A stretch of DNA of 64,000 bases from a virus. Lineage: Duplodnaviria > Caudoviricetes. A program made the translations under genes and the position numbers. Under the pieces are notes generated by a model that made no database searches, was not told the origin of the DNA, and was given only the letters and a program-made list of their open reading frames with translations. This document shows, piece after piece, positions 401 to 31,765 of this stretch. Position 1 is the first letter of the stretch, and every line of letters starts with the position of its first letter. The stretch lies in IMG/VR virus record IMGVR_UViG_3300014208_000026, positions 128,001-192,000 of that record; one strand, written 5' to 3'.

Positions 401-537
401 ATAGCTACCAGGAGTCTGCCAAGCGTGCAGGACAGCTTAGAGGACGGTTGTAAGGAGGACTCGGATTTGGTGTCGGCAGAGCCGTCCGTGAACTAGGGTC
501 TTTCCCCAACCCCCCAACCCTCTGTTCGTTTTTCAGC

Positions 538-558
538 CTATCCCCTTTCCTTTAGTAG
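538..558 (+). promoter_or_regulatory. Putative phage late promoter CTAT-N11-TAGTAG
   Basis: Same motif and spacing at 2226-2246(-), 17921-17941(+) and 26561-26581(-). Confidence 0.55.
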
Positions 559-577
559 AACCTAAGGAGAACTCGTT

Positions 578-1120
578 ATGAAATCCCTGAAAGCTTCCGT
601 TGTTCGACTGGCCTACGAGCACCCTGAGTTCCGTGGTGAGCTGCTGGGTGTGCTTGCAGCTCGGCAGGGCCGTAAGACCGCCGCTTCCACAGATCCCATT
701 GGCAAAGGGAAGAATGGCTACATCGCTTTCTACAAGGGCAAGAAGGTGGAAGTGATGGCCGACACGAAGCTTCAGGCTCAGATCACGGCTGCTGCGTATT
801 TCAAGGCGAAGAAGTCGTATGAAGTGGATGTTGAACTGGCTGAGACGGACGGTAAGCAGGTGACTCATAAACCGATGTTTGCTTCATCGGTTGAGACAGC
901 GGCTAAGGCGGACCCAAATCCGTGGAAAGCCACGCACGAAATCACTTGGTCAAAAACTCGAAAAGCTCCTAAGAAAACAGTTAAGGTGATGTTGTCCTCG
1001 GACGGTCAAGTGTACACCAAGCCTGAGTGGGATGCTGGAGACAACGGGGATTTCAGTGTGCATAAGGGGGAATGGCAGTTCCAGGGTGAGCCTTTTGATG
1101 GCTCTGTCAAGAAGCTGTAG
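578..1120 (+). CDS. Putative virion-internal modular protein (leader plus two small domains)
   Basis: N-terminus MKSLKASVVRLAYEHPEFRGELLGVL closely matches that of 25583..26539; C-terminal W-x-ATH...YTKPEWDAG domain is shared with 5503..6045. Confidence 0.75.
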   Translation: MKSLKASVVRLAYEHPEFRGELLGVLAARQGRKTAASTDPIGKGKNGYIAFYKGKKVEVMADTKLQAQITAAAYFKAKKSYEVDVELAETDGKQVTHKPMFASSVETAAKADPNPWKATHEITWSKTRKAPKKTVKVMLSSDGQVYTKPEWDAGDNGDFSVHKGEWQFQGEPFDGSVKKL

Positions 1121-2304: not shown

Positions 2305-2565
2305 ATGGACGGTTTTCGTAGGCACGTTTTGTCTCTTGTGACCTCTTCGGAGAAGGGCCGTGAGGTTCTCAGGGAAGTCCTGGTGCCGGTGTATGTCGAT
2401 CCCGACATGGGATCTTTTGAGCTTTTTCCCTACAAGGAATTTTGGGAAGTTGTCAGTAAGGAGTCTATGGGTAAAGGGATTCCTTTGTGCGACGCTTACA
2501 TAGAGTTGGCGTCGGAGGATTTCAGTCCTGAGACAGGGCACCCTTTTCTTCGAAGAAAGGAATAG
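2305..2565 (+). CDS. Hypothetical protein, paralog of 2572..2922
   Basis: Shared GRE.LR...FW..V...A.(I/L)ELA...GHPFLR.KE pattern. Confidence 0.75.
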   Translation: MDGFRRHVLSLVTSSEKGREVLREVLVPVYVDPDMGSFELFPYKEFWEVVSKESMGKGIPLCDAYIELASEDFSPETGHPFLRRKE

Positions 2566-2571
2566 AATACC

Positions 2572-2922
2572 ATGAGCATCCAGTACAAACCCGTGAATGA
2601 GATCGTCGAATCGTTCGTAAAGACCGAACTGGGCAGGGAGGCTCTCCGGCAGGCTGTTGTCTGGCCCCTGGCAGTTCGATTGGGGGAAGGATACCGGCCC
2701 GAGTTATCCCCCTACGAGATTCTGTCCTCTGAAGACTTCTGGAAAGAGGTTATGCTCTACGCTTTGACCCAAGGGCTGTCGGCGACAGGGGCTTTCTTGG
2801 AGTTGGCCGATCAGAAGCCAAGTTTGGAGAAGGGACACCCGTTCCTGAGGCTGAAAGAGAAGGAGTCGGAGCCCGAGAAGGCGTGGGATAGGGAGCGGGA
2901 AGCCCTGACGGTCCTTGGATAG
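2572..2922 (+). CDS. Hypothetical protein, paralog of 2305..2565
   Basis: AAGGA RBS; shared motif GHPFLRLKE. Confidence 0.75.
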   Translation: MSIQYKPVNEIVESFVKTELGREALRQAVVWPLAVRLGEGYRPELSPYEILSSEDFWKEVMLYALTQGLSATGAFLELADQKPSLEKGHPFLRLKEKESEPEKAWDREREALTVLG

Positions 2923-2961
2923 GGTATAGTAGAGGCTGGTAGTTTAAACGAGAGGTACTCC

Positions 2962-3264
2962 ATGAAACTGTCTTTGTGCCCTTGGGAGAGTGTTCGTGTC
3001 AAGGTTTCTTTGACTGAAGTAGAGCTGCACGAGGCGGTCTTGGACTACGTGGAGAAGCTTCACGGTCTGCACAAGTTGTCTGAGGACTATGAACAGAATC
3101 TGGTGCTGACTCCCTGCATTGGCCAGGATGTTGGAGGCTTTGATTTCATCGTCAGTCCCTCTGACGAGACCGACGGTGAAAATGTCTACGAAGCTTCCTG
3201 GGATCATGGTTTGAATCCCCGCCGGAGTGGAAAGGATTCTTTGACCGAACGAGAAGCGGAATGA
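2962..3264 (+). CDS. Hypothetical acidic protein
   Basis: 100-aa ORF with GAGG RBS, ATGA overlap with next gene. Confidence 0.7.
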   Translation: MKLSLCPWESVRVKVSLTEVELHEAVLDYVEKLHGLHKLSEDYEQNLVLTPCIGQDVGGFDFIVSPSDETDGENVYEASWDHGLNPRRSGKDSLTEREAE

Positions 3265-3764
3265 ACAATCCCTTCGCTAGCCTTTCCGAGAAAGTACACG
3301 ACCTCGAAGTCAGGGCCTCGTACCTTGAGACGGTAGCTTCGGTGTTGGCCAATCAGGTGATCGCGCAGTATTCGCAGAGGCTCCGGTCGATGAAGCGTAT
3401 CGAGAATCTGGAGATAGAGTCCCGAGAGGTCTTATCTATTCTGGCCGATTTGATGTATGCGGTTAAGGGGCTGGGGCAGAAGCCTTGGCTGGTTACAATG
3501 CCTTCTTCGGTTCTGAAAAGGTTGCAGAAGGAACTTGATCTATATCCCGCGGACGGCGATGTGGTTGAAGGCTCTAGTAGGGGGAGCGCTTTTGCGGGCA
3601 TGGTGTGGGGCGTTTCGGTCTTCGAAATCTATATCGAGAGCGATCCGGTCATGGTCTGGGGAGACGGGAACCCGTATCACACTGAGCCGGTAGTGTACGG
3701 AGTCCAGTTGACGGATCCCGGTATTCCGGAAGTACGGATGGAGGGCTTAAAATGTACACCTTGA
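3261..3764 (+). CDS. Hypothetical protein: coiled coil plus capsid A-domain-like segment
   Basis: 167 aa; VTMPSSVLKRLQKELD...GMVWGVSVF...VMVWGD; similar to 3942..4463. Confidence 0.7.
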   Translation: MNNPFASLSEKVHDLEVRASYLETVASVLANQVIAQYSQRLRSMKRIENLEIESREVLSILADLMYAVKGLGQKPWLVTMPSSVLKRLQKELDLYPADGDVVEGSSRGSAFAGMVWGVSVFEIYIESDPVMVWGDGNPYHTEPVVYGVQLTDPGIPEVRMEGLKCTP

Positions 3765-3925
3765 AGTGGCTGATCGAAAAGTCTGGACAGGTGCAGAGAG
3801 GCACTCGTGACGGGAAATACGTTCCGGCCCGTCCGGTGGTTCATTTCTTCTTGAGCCGATTGCGGGATGCGTGGGAAGTGCTCAGAGGCAGGGCGGATGC
3901 TTTCACATGGCCTGACGGGCAGTAG
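3752..3925 (+). CDS. Small phage protein of 57 aa, not in the ORF track
   Basis: Read manually: MYTLKWLIEKSGQVQRGTRDGKYVPARPVVHFFLSRLRDAWEVLRGRADAFTWPDGQ; GGAGGG RBS upstream; fills the gap between neighbouring genes. Confidence 0.7.
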   Translation: MYTLKWLIEKSGQVQRGTRDGKYVPARPVVHFFLSRLRDAWEVLRGRADAFTWPDGQ

Positions 3926-3941
3926 GGGGATATAAAAAACC

Positions 3942-4463
3942 ATGGACGACAAGCAGACCGCAGAATTTAAGGCCCTCTGGGAAGGGCCTGTCCCGTCCAT
4001 TCTTGATATTCTACAGAGGGTCGAAGATCTGGAAGCCAAGGTGAAGCACCTTGAGGACATTAATGGAGTTTTCCCCGAAGAACCAGAGGAAGTAGAGGGA
4101 CCAGAGGCACTTCTGACTGCGGATAGTCCTTGCCTTCAGCCGAACCAGTTCCTGCTCGACGCCTATCCTGCAATGGTAGAGAAGGCAGGCAAGATCCCTG
4201 TCGAAGACGATGCGGATTTAGAATCCGTCTTGGATCTGTTCTCCTCTATCGAGCGGCACCGGCAACGTACAGTTATTTTCACTTTGGGGCTGAGAGCTTG
4301 GTCTGCATTGGAGAGGTTTTTGCCTCGGTGGTTGAACTCTTTTGGTAAACTGTACGGGGCTCAGGTTCTCGTGTCTCCGGAGTTCGAAGAGGATTTGGTT
4401 CTGGTGTGGGGAGACGCGGAGGAGGTCCAGGACCGGATCGTCGTGGGCTGTAGGATGGCGTGA
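3942..4463 (+). CDS. Hypothetical protein: coiled coil plus capsid A-domain-like segment
   Basis: 173 aa; FTLGLRAWSALERFL...GKLYGAQVLVS...LVLVWGD. Confidence 0.7.
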   Translation: MDDKQTAEFKALWEGPVPSILDILQRVEDLEAKVKHLEDINGVFPEEPEEVEGPEALLTADSPCLQPNQFLLDAYPAMVEKAGKIPVEDDADLESVLDLFSSIERHRQRTVIFTLGLRAWSALERFLPRWLNSFGKLYGAQVLVSPEFEEDLVLVWGDAEEVQDRIVVGCRMA

Positions 4464-4466
4464 CTC

Positions 4467-4670
4467 ATGCCTATAACAGAAGAACGGAAGCTAGCAGTGG
4501 TAGAATCTCTGTTTATAGCTGAGTTAAACGGAGAAGACGTCCGTAAGAGGTTGTGGGACGTTCTCCGAGAGGTTTTCGGCAGTGAGGTGGATGAATTCAC
4601 TTTGGCACAGGCTGCCAAGGAAATGCACGCTAAGATCAGGGCCTCTGTAGACCGCCTACCGCCTCTATAA
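4467..4670 (+). CDS. Small hypothetical protein
   Basis: 67-aa ORF closing the operon. Confidence 0.65.
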   Translation: MPITEERKLAVVESLFIAELNGEDVRKRLWDVLREVFGSEVDEFTLAQAAKEMHAKIRASVDRLPPL

Positions 4671-4698
4671 GCGGGTGATTTCTGGTGGGGTCTAGTCC

Positions 4699-5304
4699 TT
4701 ATTCCTCTTCGTCCGGTTCTCCCTTCCGAGCGTAGAGAGCCCAGCTTCCGCCGTCAGAATTCACGTACCCGTCCCCATCGCAGCGAGTGCATTCGGGGTG
4801 GGGCTTGTCCGAAGAGTTGCCAGAGAACTCACAGTAGAACCGGCCACGCTGATGAGTCCCGATTGCCTCTGCGTCCAGGGCCACCTTACCCTCCGCAATC
4901 CAGGCCAGCACCTTCTCTGCCGGAATTGGCTCGCGAGGCTCGCCTGCCGCTCCCGTCCACCAGTCCAGGCGCCCGTGGCAGTTGCATTCCCTGTCGGTTT
5001 CTTCGAGACTGCCCTGGCGGACCAGTTCGTACGTGCTATCTCCGTCCTTGTATTCCTTTGGCCACTCGGTGGCGGGGAAGTGCCCGCTGTTCGGGGCGAA
5101 GGCATACACGGGACAGTCCAGGCCGTAGAATTCGTAACGGGCACTCCTGCCCTCTTCGACGATCCACGGCACGCTATCGGGGTCAGGGTCCGTCCAGACC
5201 ACGCAGGCGCAGTCCTTGAGCCCTTCAGGGGCGTCTTCGAAGGAGTAGCCTCCCCCGTCCAGGTCGTAGGCTTCGTTCAGGTGCTTGATGCGATCGTCGT
5301 CCAT
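4699..5304 (-). CDS. Hypothetical protein with Cys clusters (CxxCxGxG-type zinc finger)
   Basis: Start reassigned to MDDDRIK at 5304, just after the stop of the upstream gene; CNCHG and CTRCDGDG motifs. Confidence 0.7.
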   Translation of the reverse strand: MDDDRIKHLNEAYDLDGGGYSFEDAPEGLKDCACVVWTDPDPDSVPWIVEEGRSARYEFYGLDCPVYAFAPNSGHFPATEWPKEYKDGDSTYELVRQGSLEETDRECNCHGRLDWWTGAAGEPREPIPAEKVLAWIAEGKVALDAEAIGTHQRGRFYCEFSGNSSDKPHPECTRCDGDGYVNSDGGSWALYARKGEPDEEE

Positions 5305-5306
5305 GA

Positions 5307-5495
5307 TTAGACCCCGCTTTCTCTGTTGAGGAGTTCCCAGTTGTCCTGGCCTTGCTTTTCGACGACGGCGTCCACTTTCCTGGCCCATTCGAGCATTTGG
5401 TTTTCCGCCTTTCCGTTGTCGTCGACGAAACCAAGTTCGTCTAGGGTTCCTTCTAGAAGGGTGACGTAGCGGATTCGGTAGACGGGCTGTTCCAT
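5307..5495 (-). CDS. Small hypothetical protein
   Basis: 62-aa ORF packed between neighbours with GAGGAG RBS. Confidence 0.7.
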   Translation of the reverse strand: MEQPVYRIRYVTLLEGTLDELGFVDDNGKAENQMLEWARKVDAVVEKQGQDNWELLNRESGV

Positions 5496-5502
5496 TTTCG
5501 AT

Positions 5503-6045
5503 TCACTCCTCGTTTATCGGGCAGTAGAGGGTTTCCAGGTCCCGCAGGCTTTTCAGAATATCGCGGGTTTCCTGTTCCACAGTCATTTCCTTTTGCCCAC
5601 TTTTGGCAGGTGTTTTGGATATCTTTACGACACGCCCCTCCTCCAGATGATCCGGAGCGTACCATGTTTCTCTCTCGTAGAAATAAGTGCATCTGTAGTG
5701 ACCTTCATCCCATTCCGATTTCGTGTAGGCAGGGCCCTCTCCTTTGCTGTTTGTTCCGTAGAGTTTTAGCTCTATGCGGTTTCCCTGTGCGTCGATCGCT
5801 ATATGGGTTGGCTTCCATTTGTTACGGATCGGTTTCACGACATACCCTGTATCGAAACGGAACCCCCGCAGGTACCACACGCCCTTTTCTCGGGCGTGTT
5901 CGCAGTCGTCGCAACCAGCGTCCCACTCGGGTTTCGTGTAGGCGGGGCCGTCGCCTCTGCTGTTCTGTTTGCACAGCATAATCTCGGTACGGTGGCCGTT
6001 GGGGGCAACCACGACGTGCGTTGCGACCCACTTTGGTTCTTCCAT
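5503..6045 (-). CDS. Protein with a tandem duplication of a W-x-x-TH...YTKxEWDxG domain
   Basis: WVATH...GPAYTKPEWDAG and WKPTH...GPAYTKSEWDEG. Confidence 0.8.
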   Translation of the reverse strand: MEEPKWVATHVVVAPNGHRTEIMLCKQNSRGDGPAYTKPEWDAGCDDCEHAREKGVWYLRGFRFDTGYVVKPIRNKWKPTHIAIDAQGNRIELKLYGTNSKGEGPAYTKSEWDEGHYRCTYFYERETWYAPDHLEEGRVVKISKTPAKSGQKEMTVEQETRDILKSLRDLETLYCPINEE

Positions 6046-6051
6046 GGTTCC

Positions 6052-6315
6052 CTACCTGTTTCCGGTGTTACCAAGCAGTCCGACGAGGTCTGCGTCTTCG
6101 ATGAGTTCCCTGATCTCGCCCATCGCGGGAACGTCAAGGGTTCCGCCCGGGAGCCCTTCGAGGGCTTCGAACTGTCGGGCCTGTTCGATCGTGTGCCCCA
6201 GCAGGTAACGCAGGTCGGTTTCCAGGTTTCTGGACGTCTGGACGACGGCGAAACGGGAAGCCCGAAGATTTGCTGAGATCCAGTCCCGCAAGATCTCGAT
6301 GCTGTCGGTCTGCAT
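6052..6315 (-). CDS. Hypothetical protein, paralog of 6318..6581
   Basis: MQT..IEIL.D and EGLP.GTLDVPA shared; both 87 aa. Confidence 0.8.
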   Translation of the reverse strand: MQTDSIEILRDWISANLRASRFAVVQTSRNLETDLRYLLGHTIEQARQFEALEGLPGGTLDVPAMGEIRELIEDADLVGLLGNTGNR

Positions 6316-6317
6316 TC

Positions 6318-6581
6318 CTAATCCCCTTCGTTTTCGTAGGTGGCTCTTTCGGCGGCCCGTTCGTCCAGGTGCTCTTTGAGTTCCGTCAGGGCGGGGACAT
6401 CGAGGGTCCCTTCGGGGAGCCCTTCGTTGTACTCTAAACTGTGGACAGCCTGAGAGATTCGGTTGTACAGTCGGAGGAAGTCCCGATCAAAGTCTCCCGA
6501 GGAATCATTGATCCGATAGCGCCCGTCCCAAACGGCTTTGTCCAACAGGTCTTTCAGGATTTCGATGGTTCCGGTTTGCAT
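6318..6581 (-). CDS. Hypothetical protein, paralog of 6052..6315
   Basis: Same shared motifs; first gene after the 6615-6652 motif. Confidence 0.8.
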   Translation of the reverse strand: MQTGTIEILKDLLDKAVWDGRYRINDSSGDFDRDFLRLYNRISQAVHSLEYNEGLPEGTLDVPALTELKEHLDERAAERATYENEGD

Positions 6582-6614
6582 TTTTATTCCCTACCCGCAG
6601 TGCTTACGTCCTAT

Positions 6615-6652
6615 GTATACACCAGAGCGGGGAGGAATGAAACTGAAATCGT
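6615..6652 (-). promoter_or_regulatory. Conserved 38-bp accessory-operon promoter motif, copy 1 of 6
   Basis: Minus strand ACGATTTCAGTTTCATTC-N11-GGTGTATAC; TTTCAT-17 nt-TATACA spacing. Confidence 0.75.
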
Positions 6653-6665
6653 TTAGGCAGGAGGC

Positions 6666-7910
6666 TTAGTTCTTTGGAGTCTGAATAGAGAAGGAGGCCG
6701 CAGTCATCATTCGACGGGCGTAGTCCTGTACGAGCTGACGCATCTTGTCGAATCGGCAGTTTCCGATTCGGGCTTTGACGTGTTCCAGCGTTTGTTCGGA
6801 CAGATCGATGGACCTGCCTCGATAGAAGCTTTTGTCTACGAACATCCAGGCATAGCCAGAAGAAGTCTGGGCCCCGTTTGCCAGATTGAACAGTACGTGG
6901 GACACAGAGGTCATCAACTGGGCGTCGGTGAACTTTCCGTCCGCTACGTCCTCGATGATCTTTTTCATCTCTACGCAGGCGTCCTCTACGTTCTTGGGGT
7001 TGGTGGCTGCGTAGAGAACAGCCGTGCCGTTATCCCAGGAGCCCATCTCGAACATCGCGGTATCGTAGCACAGGCCCTTCTCTTCTCGAAGCCGAAGGAA
7101 CGCCAGGGAGTGCATTCCGCCGCCGATGAGATCCTGGGCAATATCATCGGCGTGGTGATTCAAACAGCTATCCTTGAAGGCGAGCCCTGGCATGAGGAGG
7201 GCTACATACGCCTGATCGGCTGCATGTTGGAAGAGGTGGGTTTTCGGGGAGGCCCACGTTCCGGTATCCGATTCGATTGTCGGAATGCTGTTTGGAGTGC
7301 CGGGTTCCAGGACGTATTGGTCCAGAACGATGGAGAGGTCGGGGTTTGCAGAGAGATCCCCGACCAGGGCTACAACTACGTTCTGTGCGGTGTAGTTGGC
7401 GGCCTTGTAGACTTTCAGGTCGTCCAGGGTCATATCGAGGATATCCTGGCGCTCACCGAGTGTTTCTCTGCCCAGGATAGGGCCGAAGTGGGCGGTCTCG
7501 GTCATGCCGAAGAAGTGGGAGGCGGGGTCATCCTCGAACCTCTGGCGTTCTTCCAGAATGACGTTCCGCTCTCGTTCGAATTCATCCTGGTCCAGGGAAG
7601 GCGTGAAGGCCATTTCGCAGAGGTAGCCGAGGGCTTCCAGGATCTTGTCGGGGGTAGTGTCGATGTAGAATGCGGTTCGGTCGTTGTCAGTGTAGGCGTT
7701 CGTGCTACCTATGGCCGCGATGAGGCGGTTCATCTCTTCATAGGATCTTTTCGCTGTCCCTTTGAAGATCATATGCTCCAGGAAGTGGGCCGTTCCCGAT
7801 CGCACGTCCTGGATGGAGCCTGAGTTGACGATGATGCGGACCGACACGACCGGTGTCGGCATATGATGCTTGATGACCCGGAACCGGCCGATTGTTTCTA
7901 CGACGGGCAT
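6666..7910 (-). CDS. M16 family zinc metallopeptidase (insulinase/pitrilysin-like)
   Basis: Inverted zinc motif HxxEH in GTAHFLEHMIFKGT; NAYTDNDRTAFY; ERNVILEE; C-terminal LREEKGLCY. Confidence 0.95.
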   Translation of the reverse strand: MPVVETIGRFRVIKHHMPTPVVSVRIIVNSGSIQDVRSGTAHFLEHMIFKGTAKRSYEEMNRLIAAIGSTNAYTDNDRTAFYIDTTPDKILEALGYLCEMAFTPSLDQDEFERERNVILEERQRFEDDPASHFFGMTETAHFGPILGRETLGERQDILDMTLDDLKVYKAANYTAQNVVVALVGDLSANPDLSIVLDQYVLEPGTPNSIPTIESDTGTWASPKTHLFQHAADQAYVALLMPGLAFKDSCLNHHADDIAQDLIGGGMHSLAFLRLREEKGLCYDTAMFEMGSWDNGTAVLYAATNPKNVEDACVEMKKIIEDVADGKFTDAQLMTSVSHVLFNLANGAQTSSGYAWMFVDKSFYRGRSIDLSEQTLEHVKARIGNCRFDKMRQLVQDYARRMMTAASFSIQTPKN

Positions 7911-25582: not shown

Positions 25583-26539
25583 CTAGATCACCGCAGGAAC
25601 GCCAGCCTTCATCAGGTCCGACTTTTCTTTCGTGAGCAGGCGGTCGAGAAGAACGGCCTGATCATGGGCTCCCGTAGTTTCCATCAAGTGGACGCAGAAG
25701 GACGCCACTAACATCGGGGTCGTGAGCTTCTTGGCGACGAGGGCCAGCAGAGCCTTGAATGCCATCGGGAAGCGGAGCGTGAAGCCAGCGGTCTTTACGT
25801 TAGTATCGGTGCTGGCCAGAACAGTAGCGGCCGGTTCAACATTCCCGAGGGCCACGAAATCCGACTTCTCACGGGTGAAGAGGCGGTCGACCAGAACGGC
25901 CTGATCGTGGTAACCCTTGGTTTCGAGCAGATAGACCACAAAGGCGGCCACCGTCAGGGGGTTCGGAAGTTTGGCGGCTACGACGCCCATTAGCGTCTTG
26001 AAAGCCATGGGGTAGTGGAACACAAAACCTGCTGTCTTCACTGCTGGAGCGCTGGCGGTCTTGTCCGCTTCAGGCTCCGCCTTCTTCAAGTCCCCCTTCT
26101 TCTGAGCGAGGATCTTGTCGATTTTAACTGCTTCCGCCGTGGCGCCCAGGACGTCCAGGAGGTGAACGCAGAAAGCTGCGGCAACCAGCGGGTTGGGCAT
26201 TTTCTTGGCAACCATGGCCAGGAGAGCCTTCTGAGCCGGATTCAGCTTGAGCTGGTAGGTCGGGCCGTCAGCAGCCTTCTTGGCAATGTCTTCGATCTTG
26301 CCTTTGTTGGCTTCCCACTTAGCTTTCGCTTCGGGGCTCATGCTATCCGTGGGGTCTTTGCCCGCCTTCTTGGCAATGTCTTCAATCTTGCCCTTGTTTG
26401 CTTCCCACTTGGCCTTGGCCTCGGGGCTCATGTTCTCGGTGGGGTCCGCTCCGGCGGTCTTGAGCACGCCGAGCAGTTCGGAGCGGAATTTCGGAAGGTC
26501 GTGAGCGAGTCGGACGATGGACGCACGAAGATTCTTCAT
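25583..26539 (-). CDS. Putative virion-internal repeat protein with N-terminal leader
   Basis: Leader shared with 578..1120; two 30-aa repeats and three roughly 65-aa repeats separated by KTA/KKA. Confidence 0.8.
   Translation of the reverse strand: MKNLRASIVRLAHDLPKFRSELLGVLKTAGADPTENMSPEAKAKWEANKGKIEDIAKKAGKDPTDSMSPEAKAKWEANKGKIEDIAKKAADGPTYQLKLNPAQKALLAMVAKKMPNPLVAAAFCVHLLDVLGATAEAVKIDKILAQKKGDLKKAEPEADKTASAPAVKTAGFVFHYPMAFKTLMGVVAAKLPNPLTVAAFVVYLLETKGYHDQAVLVDRLFTREKSDFVALGNVEPAATVLASTDTNVKTAGFTLRFPMAFKALLALVAKKLTTPMLVASFCVHLMETTGAHDQAVLLDRLLTKEKSDLMKAGVPAVI
26274..26446 (-). repeat. Coding tandem repeat, 90-bp period, two copies
   Basis: DPT(E/D)(N/S)MSPEAKAKWEANKGKIEDIAKKA twice; DNA copies begin at 26274 and 26364. 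Confidence 0.9.
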
Positions 26540-27991: not shown

Positions 27992-28750
27992 TTAACTCCC
28001 CTGCTGTCCGAAGATATCTGTGATGGTTGGAGCCCTGTGGTTCTGCCACAGGACCTCGACAGATTTCTTCCCGCCCGTTTTTGATTCGTTCGCTTTGATG
28101 GAACCGAATTCTTGAAAGGGGAGCCAATCGGTCCCTTCGGCTCCGTTTTCGCAAACCAGTACTTGACCTTTTCTGGTTTTGCACCAATCACCGAGGGCCT
28201 GGAAGTCGATATCTTTAGAACTGCACCGGTAGCTTTTCCCGGCTTTCAAGTACGGGGGATCGATGAAGTAAGTCGCCTCAAGGTCGGGAGTAGTCTCGTA
28301 GGAGCCCTGCTGGATTGTCCAGTGCCGAATGTGCTGTACTTGATCTGCGATTCTTCGACGAACGGTGTTCCCCCAGTCGGAGTTCGGTCGAATTCCGCTT
28401 TTCATCCACGTTGAAGGTGTCTTGCAAGGAGTAGGGGAACCACGGTTGATCCAGAAACCGATCAGCCAACGTGCCTCTTGCGGCAGTTCCGGAAAGTCGT
28501 CAGTGCTCTGGTCTGGCCCGAGATCAGGGAGGGCCAAGATTTCTTCGGGTGTGACGTGGATGAGGTAATCCCAGAGGCCGCAGATCACCTCATACTTGTC
28601 GACGAGGATTATCCTACGGTCGGAGTAGCGAAGGGAGTAACCCGCGGCACCGGCAAACGGCTCGATGATCGTGTCATGAATAGGTGCGGGGTAGCGAGGT
28701 GCGGCTCTCCACTTGCCCCCGTAGTAGAGAAAGAACGGTTTCAGGTTCAC
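27992..28750 (-). CDS. DNA adenine methyltransferase (Dam-like, D12 class), orphan
   Basis: FLYYGGK, IEPFAGAAG (SAM-binding motif I) and FIDPPY (catalytic motif IV). Confidence 0.92.
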   Translation of the reverse strand: MNLKPFFLYYGGKWRAAPRYPAPIHDTIIEPFAGAAGYSLRYSDRRIILVDKYEVICGLWDYLIHVTPEEILALPDLGPDQSTDDFPELPQEARWLIGFWINRGSPTPCKTPSTWMKSGIRPNSDWGNTVRRRIADQVQHIRHWTIQQGSYETTPDLEATYFIDPPYLKAGKSYRCSSKDIDFQALGDWCKTRKGQVLVCENGAEGTDWLPFQEFGSIKANESKTGGKKSVEVLWQNHRAPTITDIFGQQGS

Positions 28751-30725: not shown

Positions 30726-31718
30726 TCAAGACACGTAGCTGCTGAGCTTTGACACGGCCCGATTCGTGATCAGGGTGTTCGGGCCCATGATCGCCGAGTT
30801 GAAACGGTTTTCGTTCCGCTTCTCAGGAGAGCCGTTAGCTCCGGCCAAGTGGGTGACCCACTGCGTGACGGCGTTCATGGCGGCCCAACCGGTGCCCGCG
30901 ACTCCCGGGATATCCTGACCGATACCGTTTTCGAACAGGAGCCGAAGTTCGGTTCGACGGAGGGACGCCTGGAGGTTACTGGCTCCGAGCTTGACGGGAT
31001 CGGGGAGGACGTGCAGAGCAAACTCGTCCCACTTCTTCTCGTCGATCTGGACCTTGGCGAACGCCGTCATCAGTTCGCCGTAGGCCGCGTATTCCTTTTC
31101 GGCGATCCCGAGAATCTCACGGGCTTTTTCCAGTTTTCCCATGATGTTCACCGAGTGCTGAAGGCTCACGGTCCGCCCAGGTTCACGGCTGTTCATGGCC
31201 AGCGTCATAGTATTCGCGCACACTACGCGAATCGGCGTCATGAATACCTTGAGGGATCCCGTGCCGTCGTGGGTGTTGCAGAGCAGGACGAAACGTCCGA
31301 CTGCATCCCCCTTGACCGGCTCGATGACTCCAGGCAGTTGGGCCAGCAGCCAGACCTTACGCCCCTCGAAGAGGGATCCGGCGGTATGATACCTCATCTG
31401 GCCGATGGTCACCAAGCTGTCCATCAGGGAGAGAGCGGTCTCGTTCTGGATTTCGCGATAGCGGTTTCCGACGATCCCGAGGATCTTGCTGTCGGAGGCA
31501 CGACGAATGGCAAAGTTGCCATTCACCATGTCATGCGTGAGGGAGGTGTTGTCCTGGGTTCGCGTCTCGACGAAGAGCGGCACCCGTTCCACCTTCCAGT
31601 CCAGTCCCGCGAGTTGCAGAACGTCGTTGGAAAGGATCGGCTCCTCCCCCACGTACGTCCCCTTGCCATGCCATGGAGTTGCGCCTGCGAATAGCAACGA
31701 CTCTACTTGGTCCGACAT
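30726..31718 (-). CDS. DUF932 family protein (phage/plasmid TIGR03299-like)
   Basis: MSDQVESL...TPWHGKG, LDWKVE, VGNRY..IQNE, TAGSL..GRKVWL, NTHDGTGS, PIRVVCANT. Confidence 0.9.
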   Translation of the reverse strand: MSDQVESLLFAGATPWHGKGTYVGEEPILSNDVLQLAGLDWKVERVPLFVETRTQDNTSLTHDMVNGNFAIRRASDSKILGIVGNRYREIQNETALSLMDSLVTIGQMRYHTAGSLFEGRKVWLLAQLPGVIEPVKGDAVGRFVLLCNTHDGTGSLKVFMTPIRVVCANTMTLAMNSREPGRTVSLQHSVNIMGKLEKAREILGIAEKEYAAYGELMTAFAKVQIDEKKWDEFALHVLPDPVKLGASNLQASLRRTELRLLFENGIGQDIPGVAGTGWAAMNAVTQWVTHLAGANGSPEKRNENRFNSAIMGPNTLITNRAVSKLSSYVS

Positions 31719-31765
31719 TTTCGTATCTCCCCTCGTCAGTCCAGTTTTCAACCCTCACGTTTTCT

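Follow-up and report, generated by a model that had tools for sequence, protein, structure and literature searches.

A small, apparently phage-restricted domain carried with and without a recurrent leader in one very large phage genome

We find that a 64,000-nucleotide (nt) window (the whole stretch of DNA analyzed here, bases 128001-192000 of the 257-kb linear IMG/VR virus record IMGVR_UViG_3300014208_000026) encodes one small protein domain three times in two genes. Two tandem copies make up most of P0001, a leaderless protein of 180 amino acids (aa) (5503..6045, minus strand), and the third copy ends P0002, a protein of 180 aa (578..1120, plus strand) in which a leader and then an unrelated small domain, module A, precede it. 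The domain, which we call YTKxEWD, has a length of about 65-70 residues and represents a family that is undescribed in the libraries we searched and apparently restricted to phages. Judged by its sequence, the leader-borne copy in P0002 is the canonical form and the untagged tandem protein a derived one. CheckV estimates the 257-kb record to be only 49% complete, so the phage must be very large. Its sequence is present in two groundwater metagenome runs from different studies, and a 12 kb megablast query against 50,697 deposited phage genomes gave no nucleotide match.

Within P0001, residues 1-72 (copy 1; 5830..6045, minus strand) and 73-145 (copy 2; 5611..5829, minus strand) are 46% identical over 54 residues (BLASTP, E 3e-18). 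P0001 aligns with residues 116-174 of P0002 at 38% identity (E 7e-10), with its second copy giving E 2e-4; the P0002 copy (copy 3) spans residues 113-180 (914..1117, plus strand). Common to all three are W, T-H, G, Y-T-K, E-W-D, G, W, G, V, and K. The shared domain proposed in an initial annotation of this DNA is confirmed, and the strings quoted there, including ETAAKA-DP ahead of the P0002 copy, are all present as given. The P0002 copy is preceded by ...VETAAKADPNPW... in the protein. When a hidden Markov model (HMM) of the three copies was run unfiltered against all six-frame open reading frames (ORFs) of the 257-kb record, no fourth copy was found (next best E 0.95).

P0001 can be called leaderless, as annotated, because the domain begins at the protein start, an in-frame stop lies two codons upstream, and the protein has no match to a leader HMM (E 9.2). 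Besides the ORF itself and its BLASTP and HMM matches, codon-position variation supports the gene: in a variant contig from the second groundwater run (X2), 10 of the 14 differences at 5899-5947 fall at third codon positions of the minus-strand frame, which indicates that this frame is real and under purifying selection. Homology to 125 proteins also backs the frame. Behind copy 2, the 35-residue C-terminal tail (residues 146-180 plus stop; 5503..5610, minus strand) is a low-confidence predicted helix, with a predicted local distance difference test score (pLDDT) <50.

An exhaustive search of 1.84 billion cluster representatives with the three-copy profile (cut-off E<=1e-3) matched 61 of them. 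A further search with alignment A2, which has 37 rows, gave 66 near-length and 16 longer proteins, and the family as collected totals 125 proteins. Every one of these is named "hypothetical protein" at its source, and none has a precomputed Pfam domain; the contigs that encode them are metagenomic and phage-like. The novelty claimed for the domain is borne out by the curated resources we searched: scans of the domain (P0001, P0002, and the 37 aligned members) against Pfam-A, PHROGs v4, and NCBIfam 20 gave no match, and a sequence-profile search of the PDB with the family gave 0 matches. Pfam anti-defense families (e.g., Ocr, ArdA, DUF2829/Tad2) had no match at E<=0.1 in the 37 members, a dedicated anti-defense library not having been used. 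Over 128 domain instances the signature reads (W/F)-x-(P/A)-T-H-x-I ... V-M-L ... G-x-A-Y-T-x-x-E-W ... A-D-x-E ... G-x-W-x-F-Q-G-x-P-F-x-G-x-V.

Among 124 family proteins, 62 are in essence the bare domain (62-85 aa), 40 carry a C-terminal extension, 15 carry an N-terminal extension, and 4 are tandem forms, P0001 included; the extensions have no Pfam match. This mostly stand-alone occurrence, together with the varied extensions and tandem forms, argues that the domain is autonomous and modular. The family is strongly acidic (median isoelectric point, pI, 4.5; median charge -6.4), and no basic residue is conserved in it, which favors protein binding over nucleic-acid binding. A nucleotide-sponge reading that we considered is disfavored on the same grounds.

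The genomic context of seven homologues, each on a long contig, is in every case a phage or mobile-element stretch rich in small unnamed ORFs. Their neighbors are SNF2 helicase, RNase T, Lar, methyltransferase, DUF3560, DUF927 primase, integrase, or helicase plus NADAR genes, or else the last tail or baseplate genes. Only one match came from a metagenome-assembled genome, where it sits on a 36-kb phage-like contig, and the domain occurred in 0 of 400 other sampled genomes from the phylum of that assembly. Searches with tblastn using P0001, P0021, and P0030 against 50,697 phage records gave no match, and no cultured phage among them carries the domain. Loci related to P0001 were sought among viral contigs and none was found; four related or partly related IMG/VR contigs, all of them fragments, likewise contain no copy of the domain.

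The structure prediction gave a confident small fold. With alignment A2, AlphaFold2 modeled copy 1 at pLDDT 92.8 and a predicted template modeling score (pTM) of 0.76, as three strands on each side of a short helix that covers the E-W motif. Foldseek searches with this model against the PDB and BFVD returned nothing at E <0.6, and in the ESM Atlas we obtained just two unnamed clusters at a template modeling score of ~0.6, plus weak SH3-like, Tudor, and ATP-synthase-barrel rows. Small beta-barrel folds (SH3-like, Tudor, Sm, biotin-ligase C-terminal domain), which appear among the weak fold matches, share the size and mostly beta architecture of the domain. As no known structural module was recovered, we describe the domain from its model as small and beta-rich, without a relative that can be demonstrated, and we do not claim its fold as new. 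Full-length P0001, modeled from a 4-row alignment, folded poorly (pLDDT 63.7, pTM 0.43); the model repeats the secondary structure of each copy, and the domain packing in it is not reliable. Prediction of a complex between copies 1 and 2, run without controls, scored 0.00. We also considered a zinc site at C25/C45/C48/H50 of copy 1 and rejected it, as these residues are not conserved across the family.

The three copies differ in how closely they resemble the family. Scored with an HMM of the family from which this phage's own copies were left out, all three match significantly and so belong to it. The P0002 copy reaches 86.2 bits (E 5e-29), beside a family median of 85.4, copy 1 of P0001 reaches 59.2 bits (E 1e-20), under the family's 5th percentile, and copy 2 reaches 43.9 bits (E 8e-16). 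In copy 1 numbering, the near-invariant residues are T9, H10, Y36, E40, W41, W57, and G61. The T, H, Y, E, and both W residues are kept in 3 of 3 copies; G61 is replaced by D in copy 2, in line with the other family positions that this copy has lost. In our tree, the P0001 copies are sisters (Shimodaira-Hasegawa-like approximate likelihood ratio test, SH-aLRT, 91.5), and the end branch of copy 2 is 1.69 long vs 0.24 for copy 1. In the free tree, the P0002 copy did not group with those of P0001; a tree constrained to unite the three was better than this quick free search by 132 log-likelihood units (approximately unbiased test, p-AU 0.97). Because the P0002 copy is canonical and the tandem protein derived, the "one effector supplied twice" of the initial annotation is too strong, and on this sequence evidence the P0002 and P0001 copies need not act on one target.

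The leader of P0002 (residues 1-32; 578..673, plus strand) is common to seven other ORFs of the genome, as seen by phmmer, BLAST, and the leader HMM: six have it at the N-terminus and one at the C-terminus. At E<=1e-5 the leader HMM thus finds 7 N-terminal and 1 C-terminal ORF, P0002 included, which confirms that the 578..1120 gene is leader-bearing. Each N-terminal leader closes with (K/R)-T-A-(A/G) or a near variant of it. Of the 125 proteins in the domain family, none but P0002 has the leader.

P0002 has two joints of similar sequence, R-K-T-A-A-S-T-D-P and V-E-T-A-A-K-A-D-P. Joint 1 (residues 33-40, K-T-A-A-S-T-D-P; 674..697, plus strand) is a candidate cleavage site, suggested by the same motif at the ends of the other leaders and by motif enrichment: (K/R/E)-T-A-(A/G/S/T) occurs at 71 sites in genome ORFs of at least 60 aa, vs 31 +/- 5.5 in residue shuffles (2.3-fold). 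Joint 2 (residues 103-112, S-S-V-E-T-A-A-K-A-D; 884..913, plus strand) is the ETAAKA-DP of the initial annotation and is similar to the K-T-A-G-A-D-P found where the leader of the 25583-26539 protein ends. T-A-A-type motifs are densest at 62-72 kb, 95-108 kb, and 128-155 kb of the genome, and single large ORFs at genome positions 103161-106472 and 106476-107867 hold up to four such sites.

Between the joints lies module A (residues 41-102; 698..883, plus strand), a small domain unrelated to YTKxEWD. Its residues 44-89 match phrog_19202 (E 1e-4); the YTKxEWD domain itself has no PHROG. Copies of module A, 65-70% identical, lie within multi-module ORFs of related IMG/VR contigs. One is in an 862-aa ORF (L012:1930-4518) of a related 112-kb phage contig, IMGVR_UViG_3300007511_000007, and another copy is at the start of a 266-aa ORF (L013:2980-3780). 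Since the 862-aa ORF also holds the A-D-P-T-E-N-M-S-P-E...K-W-K-E module of the 25583-26539 protein, small modules are shuffled among long bead-on-a-string proteins in this phage group. The leader-bearing 25583-26539 protein (minus strand, 318 aa) is itself made of internal repeats, with the unit D-P-T-x-x-M-S-P-E-A-K-A-K-W-E-A-N-K-G-K-I-E-D-I-A-K-K-A present twice and a hydrophobic helical unit three times; V-K-T-A-G stands ahead of two of the three helical units, and K-T-A-G marks the borders of its repeated modules, much as the related motifs do at both joints of P0002. P0002 as a whole is basic (pI 9.5). Its layout fits a beads-on-a-string precursor that could be cut at the joints, and a cut at joint 2 would free the domain with 4-7 extra residues at its N-terminus, which is how the family members that stand alone look.

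The two genes are preceded by different regulatory elements. Upstream of P0002 is a block with a promoter-like element and ribosome-binding site (524..577, plus strand); this block and the first codons are shared with gene 25583-26539 (minus strand) and with no other site. The gene string of P0001 opens with a promoter-like bipartite 43-nt element, CGATTTCAGTTTCATT-N12/13-TGG(T/C)GTATA (6610..6652, minus strand). The genome contains this element 16 times (15 on the minus strand), always 25-60 nt ahead of the ATG of a non-structural gene. Six of the copies are in the window (6610-6652, minus strand; 11488; 27346; 29987; 30688; 31787) and ten elsewhere in the genome, and other copies head an HD_4 hydrolase/PncC operon, a DUF932 gene, and small orphan operons. 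Several other contigs of both groundwater runs also contain the 43-nt block, so it must be common to related phages. Simple promoter and terminator scans around the P0001 and P0002 genes performed at chance level. The labels "early/accessory" for P0001 and "late" for P0002 are ones that we infer from these sequence elements.

The accessory-gene setting annotated for P0001 agrees with its place in an operon of small genes behind an element unlike that of P0002. On the minus strand the string runs from two 87-aa tandem paralogues (6052..6581; 35% identity, E 3e-15), probably co-transcribed with P0001, across a 6-nt gap to P0001, and after a 7-nt gap to a 62-aa ORF (5307-5495) and a Cys-rich ORF. 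The paralogues (6052-6315 and 6318-6581, both minus strand) have no family match and share the motifs M-Q-T-x-x-I-E-I-L and E-G-L-P-x-G-T-L-D-V-P-A. The Cys/His-rich ORF (4699-5388, minus strand) has C-N-C-H-G and C-T-R-C-D-G-D-G motifs and no family match either; it probably starts at 5304, giving a 4-nt overlap with the stop of the 62-aa ORF, so that the operon downstream of P0001 is apparently translationally coupled.

Directly upstream of this small-gene operon is an M16 (insulinase/pitrilysin-type) peptidase gene (6666-7910, minus strand), in which the two Pfam halves are both present and the H-F-L-E-H zinc motif is intact. M16 relatives remove targeting presequences in organelles, and by analogy a link between this peptidase and the phage leader peptides is conceivable. 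Elsewhere in the window, a DUF932 protein (30726-31751, minus strand; E 1e-50) is encoded in a minus-strand operon behind the 43-nt element; the DUF932 family is common on conjugative elements. An operon behind the same element also includes 27992-28750 (minus strand), which has a weak D12-class adenine-methylase match (E 3e-4, under the curated cut-off).

Taken together, we tentatively favor, with less than even confidence, a reading in which YTKxEWD is a portable module for binding proteins, with a host factor as its probable target; its canonical copy is probably packaged and cleaved free, and its diverged tandem form would be made after infection. The domain would serve as a portable inhibitor or adaptor that binds a host protein; phages usually encode it as a separate acidic protein of ~70 aa within blocks of small accessory genes. 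In this phage, the canonical copy would be the last bead of the leader-module A-domain protein P0002, which is probably loaded into the prohead and cut, because (K/R/E)-T-A-A, the motif found where the other leaders end, is present at its joints. Cutting at the joints would yield a free domain of ~8 kDa that could be delivered with the DNA, like IPI* of phage T4. Synthesis of the leaderless tandem pair would follow infection, its operon having a promoter of a sigma-70-like class that is found ahead of non-structural genes. Packaging, cleavage at ETAAKA-DP, injection, timing, target, and an anti-defense role are all steps that we infer. The initial annotation took the shared domain as support for a model in which the leader is a cargo tag; our findings are compatible with that model but do not supply independent proof of it.

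Several observations weigh against the reading we favor. The three copies are just 38-46% identical, and the tandem copies of P0001 have lost several conserved polar positions of the family and replaced its A-D and F-Q-G positions, which makes it doubtful that they have a target in common with the P0002 copy. The copies in this phage are neutral to basic (pI 6.3, 8.4, and 8.3) vs an acidic family. In joint 2, the residue before T-A-A is E and not K/R, and a PHROG scan of ten T-A-A-rich ORFs revealed no head protease, scaffold, or capsid protein. The "late" timing of P0002 has as its sole basis the DNA block shared with one other gene. Genome contexts are circumstantial, and several homologues are found where tail modules end.

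It is possible, though on the whole unlikely, that YTKxEWD is a generic duplicated accessory domain, in which case the two genes would be functionally unlinked, P0002 a chance fusion, nothing pre-packaged, and the leader an oligomerization, localization, or regulatory helix. The region 2305-6581 is indeed rich in paralogue duplications, family members are joined to many unrelated extensions with no pattern, the fusion of leader and domain is found in this phage only, and the copies have diverged strongly. However, a leader at the extreme N-terminus of seven otherwise unrelated ORFs, with a constant end motif that also marks internal module borders, is hard to explain without processing, and the fused copy is the best conserved, which suggests normal family constraint and not decay.

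The position of homologues P0003 and P0077, directly after baseplate, tail-fiber, or SASA/Laminin_G genes, could instead point to a structural or assembly role, with the domain as a virion-associated bead (internal head, decoration, or tail-accessory) and P0001 as a soluble assembly helper of the same fold; the basic character of P0002, as in the T4 internal proteins, would suit this. We consider such a role quite improbable, given that most homologues are free-standing proteins of 62-85 aa in early or replication-type blocks of small ORFs, and that the family, unlike core structural modules, is patchy, not conserved in this phage's relatives, and absent from the cultured phages searched. Less probable still, and in our view very much so, is a ligand-binder reading, with the domain as a small barrel for RNA or DNA (Sm, Tudor, or SH3-like) or as a sponge for a small signaling molecule. 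In its favor are the weak fold likeness to Sm, Tudor, PWWP, and BPL_C small barrels and several invariant polar residues (T-H, Y-T, E, D, and Q) that could line a pocket; the acidic family composition described above points toward protein binding.

It is tempting to speculate that the portable module we favor belongs to a new family of small inhibitors acting against a host defense or housekeeping protein in two phases, in which a canonical copy of ~8 kDa, cut from the tagged polyprotein inside the capsid and injected, would act before phage gene expression and a diverged covalent dimer from an early promoter would then extend or broaden the block. While we regard this scenario as rather improbable, it would make P0002 a natural two-cargo polyprotein for capsid delivery. 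The family is confidently foldable and comprises >120 sequence clusters, none of them annotated and with no structural relative found, and a single genome that carries the same domain with and without a candidate capsid-address tag offers a testable setting. Should packaging and release of the tagged copy prove true, this phage would offer a clean natural case of a huge phage adding cargo to capsid delivery, with the domain as a small, well-behaved reporter for testing that system. At ~68 aa it is also an easy candidate for anti-defense screens; otherwise, it is one more orphan accessory domain.

The closest known parallel is found in the internal proteins of T4, which are tagged with a capsid-targeting sequence (CTS) and measure ~8 kDa, and of which IPI/IPI* is an injected restriction inhibitor (PMC9026906, PMC5694885). 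As with T4 IPI/IPI*, IPII, IPIII, and Alt, one short N-terminal tag here stands on several unrelated proteins and is followed by a short conserved site, and the presumed P0002 cargo of ~8 kDa has the size of IPI*. The proteins of this phage have no sequence similarity to the T4 internal proteins, however, and the leader is ~30 residues long vs 10-20 for the T4 CTS. In place of the T4/phiKZ-type x-x-E site, the presumed site is (K/R)-T-A-(A/G), and P0002 differs in being a putative two-cargo "polyprotein". In the giant phages phiKZ, SPN3US, and 201phi2-1, many head proteins have propeptides that are removed by a prohead protease (PMC5694885, PMC7411985, PMC10052503). Those cases involve other proteins, an A/S-x-E cleavage motif, and much longer propeptides, and the paralogues considered here are tiny domains. 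These three phages also keep paralogous enzyme sets, the virion and non-virion RNA polymerases, one packaged and one expressed after infection. These pairs follow the same packaged plus newly made logic that the initial annotation proposed for YTKxEWD. By analogy, the possible system in this phage may resemble T4 and giant-phage propeptide targeting, from which it differs in its tag, its site, and its multi-cargo precursor.
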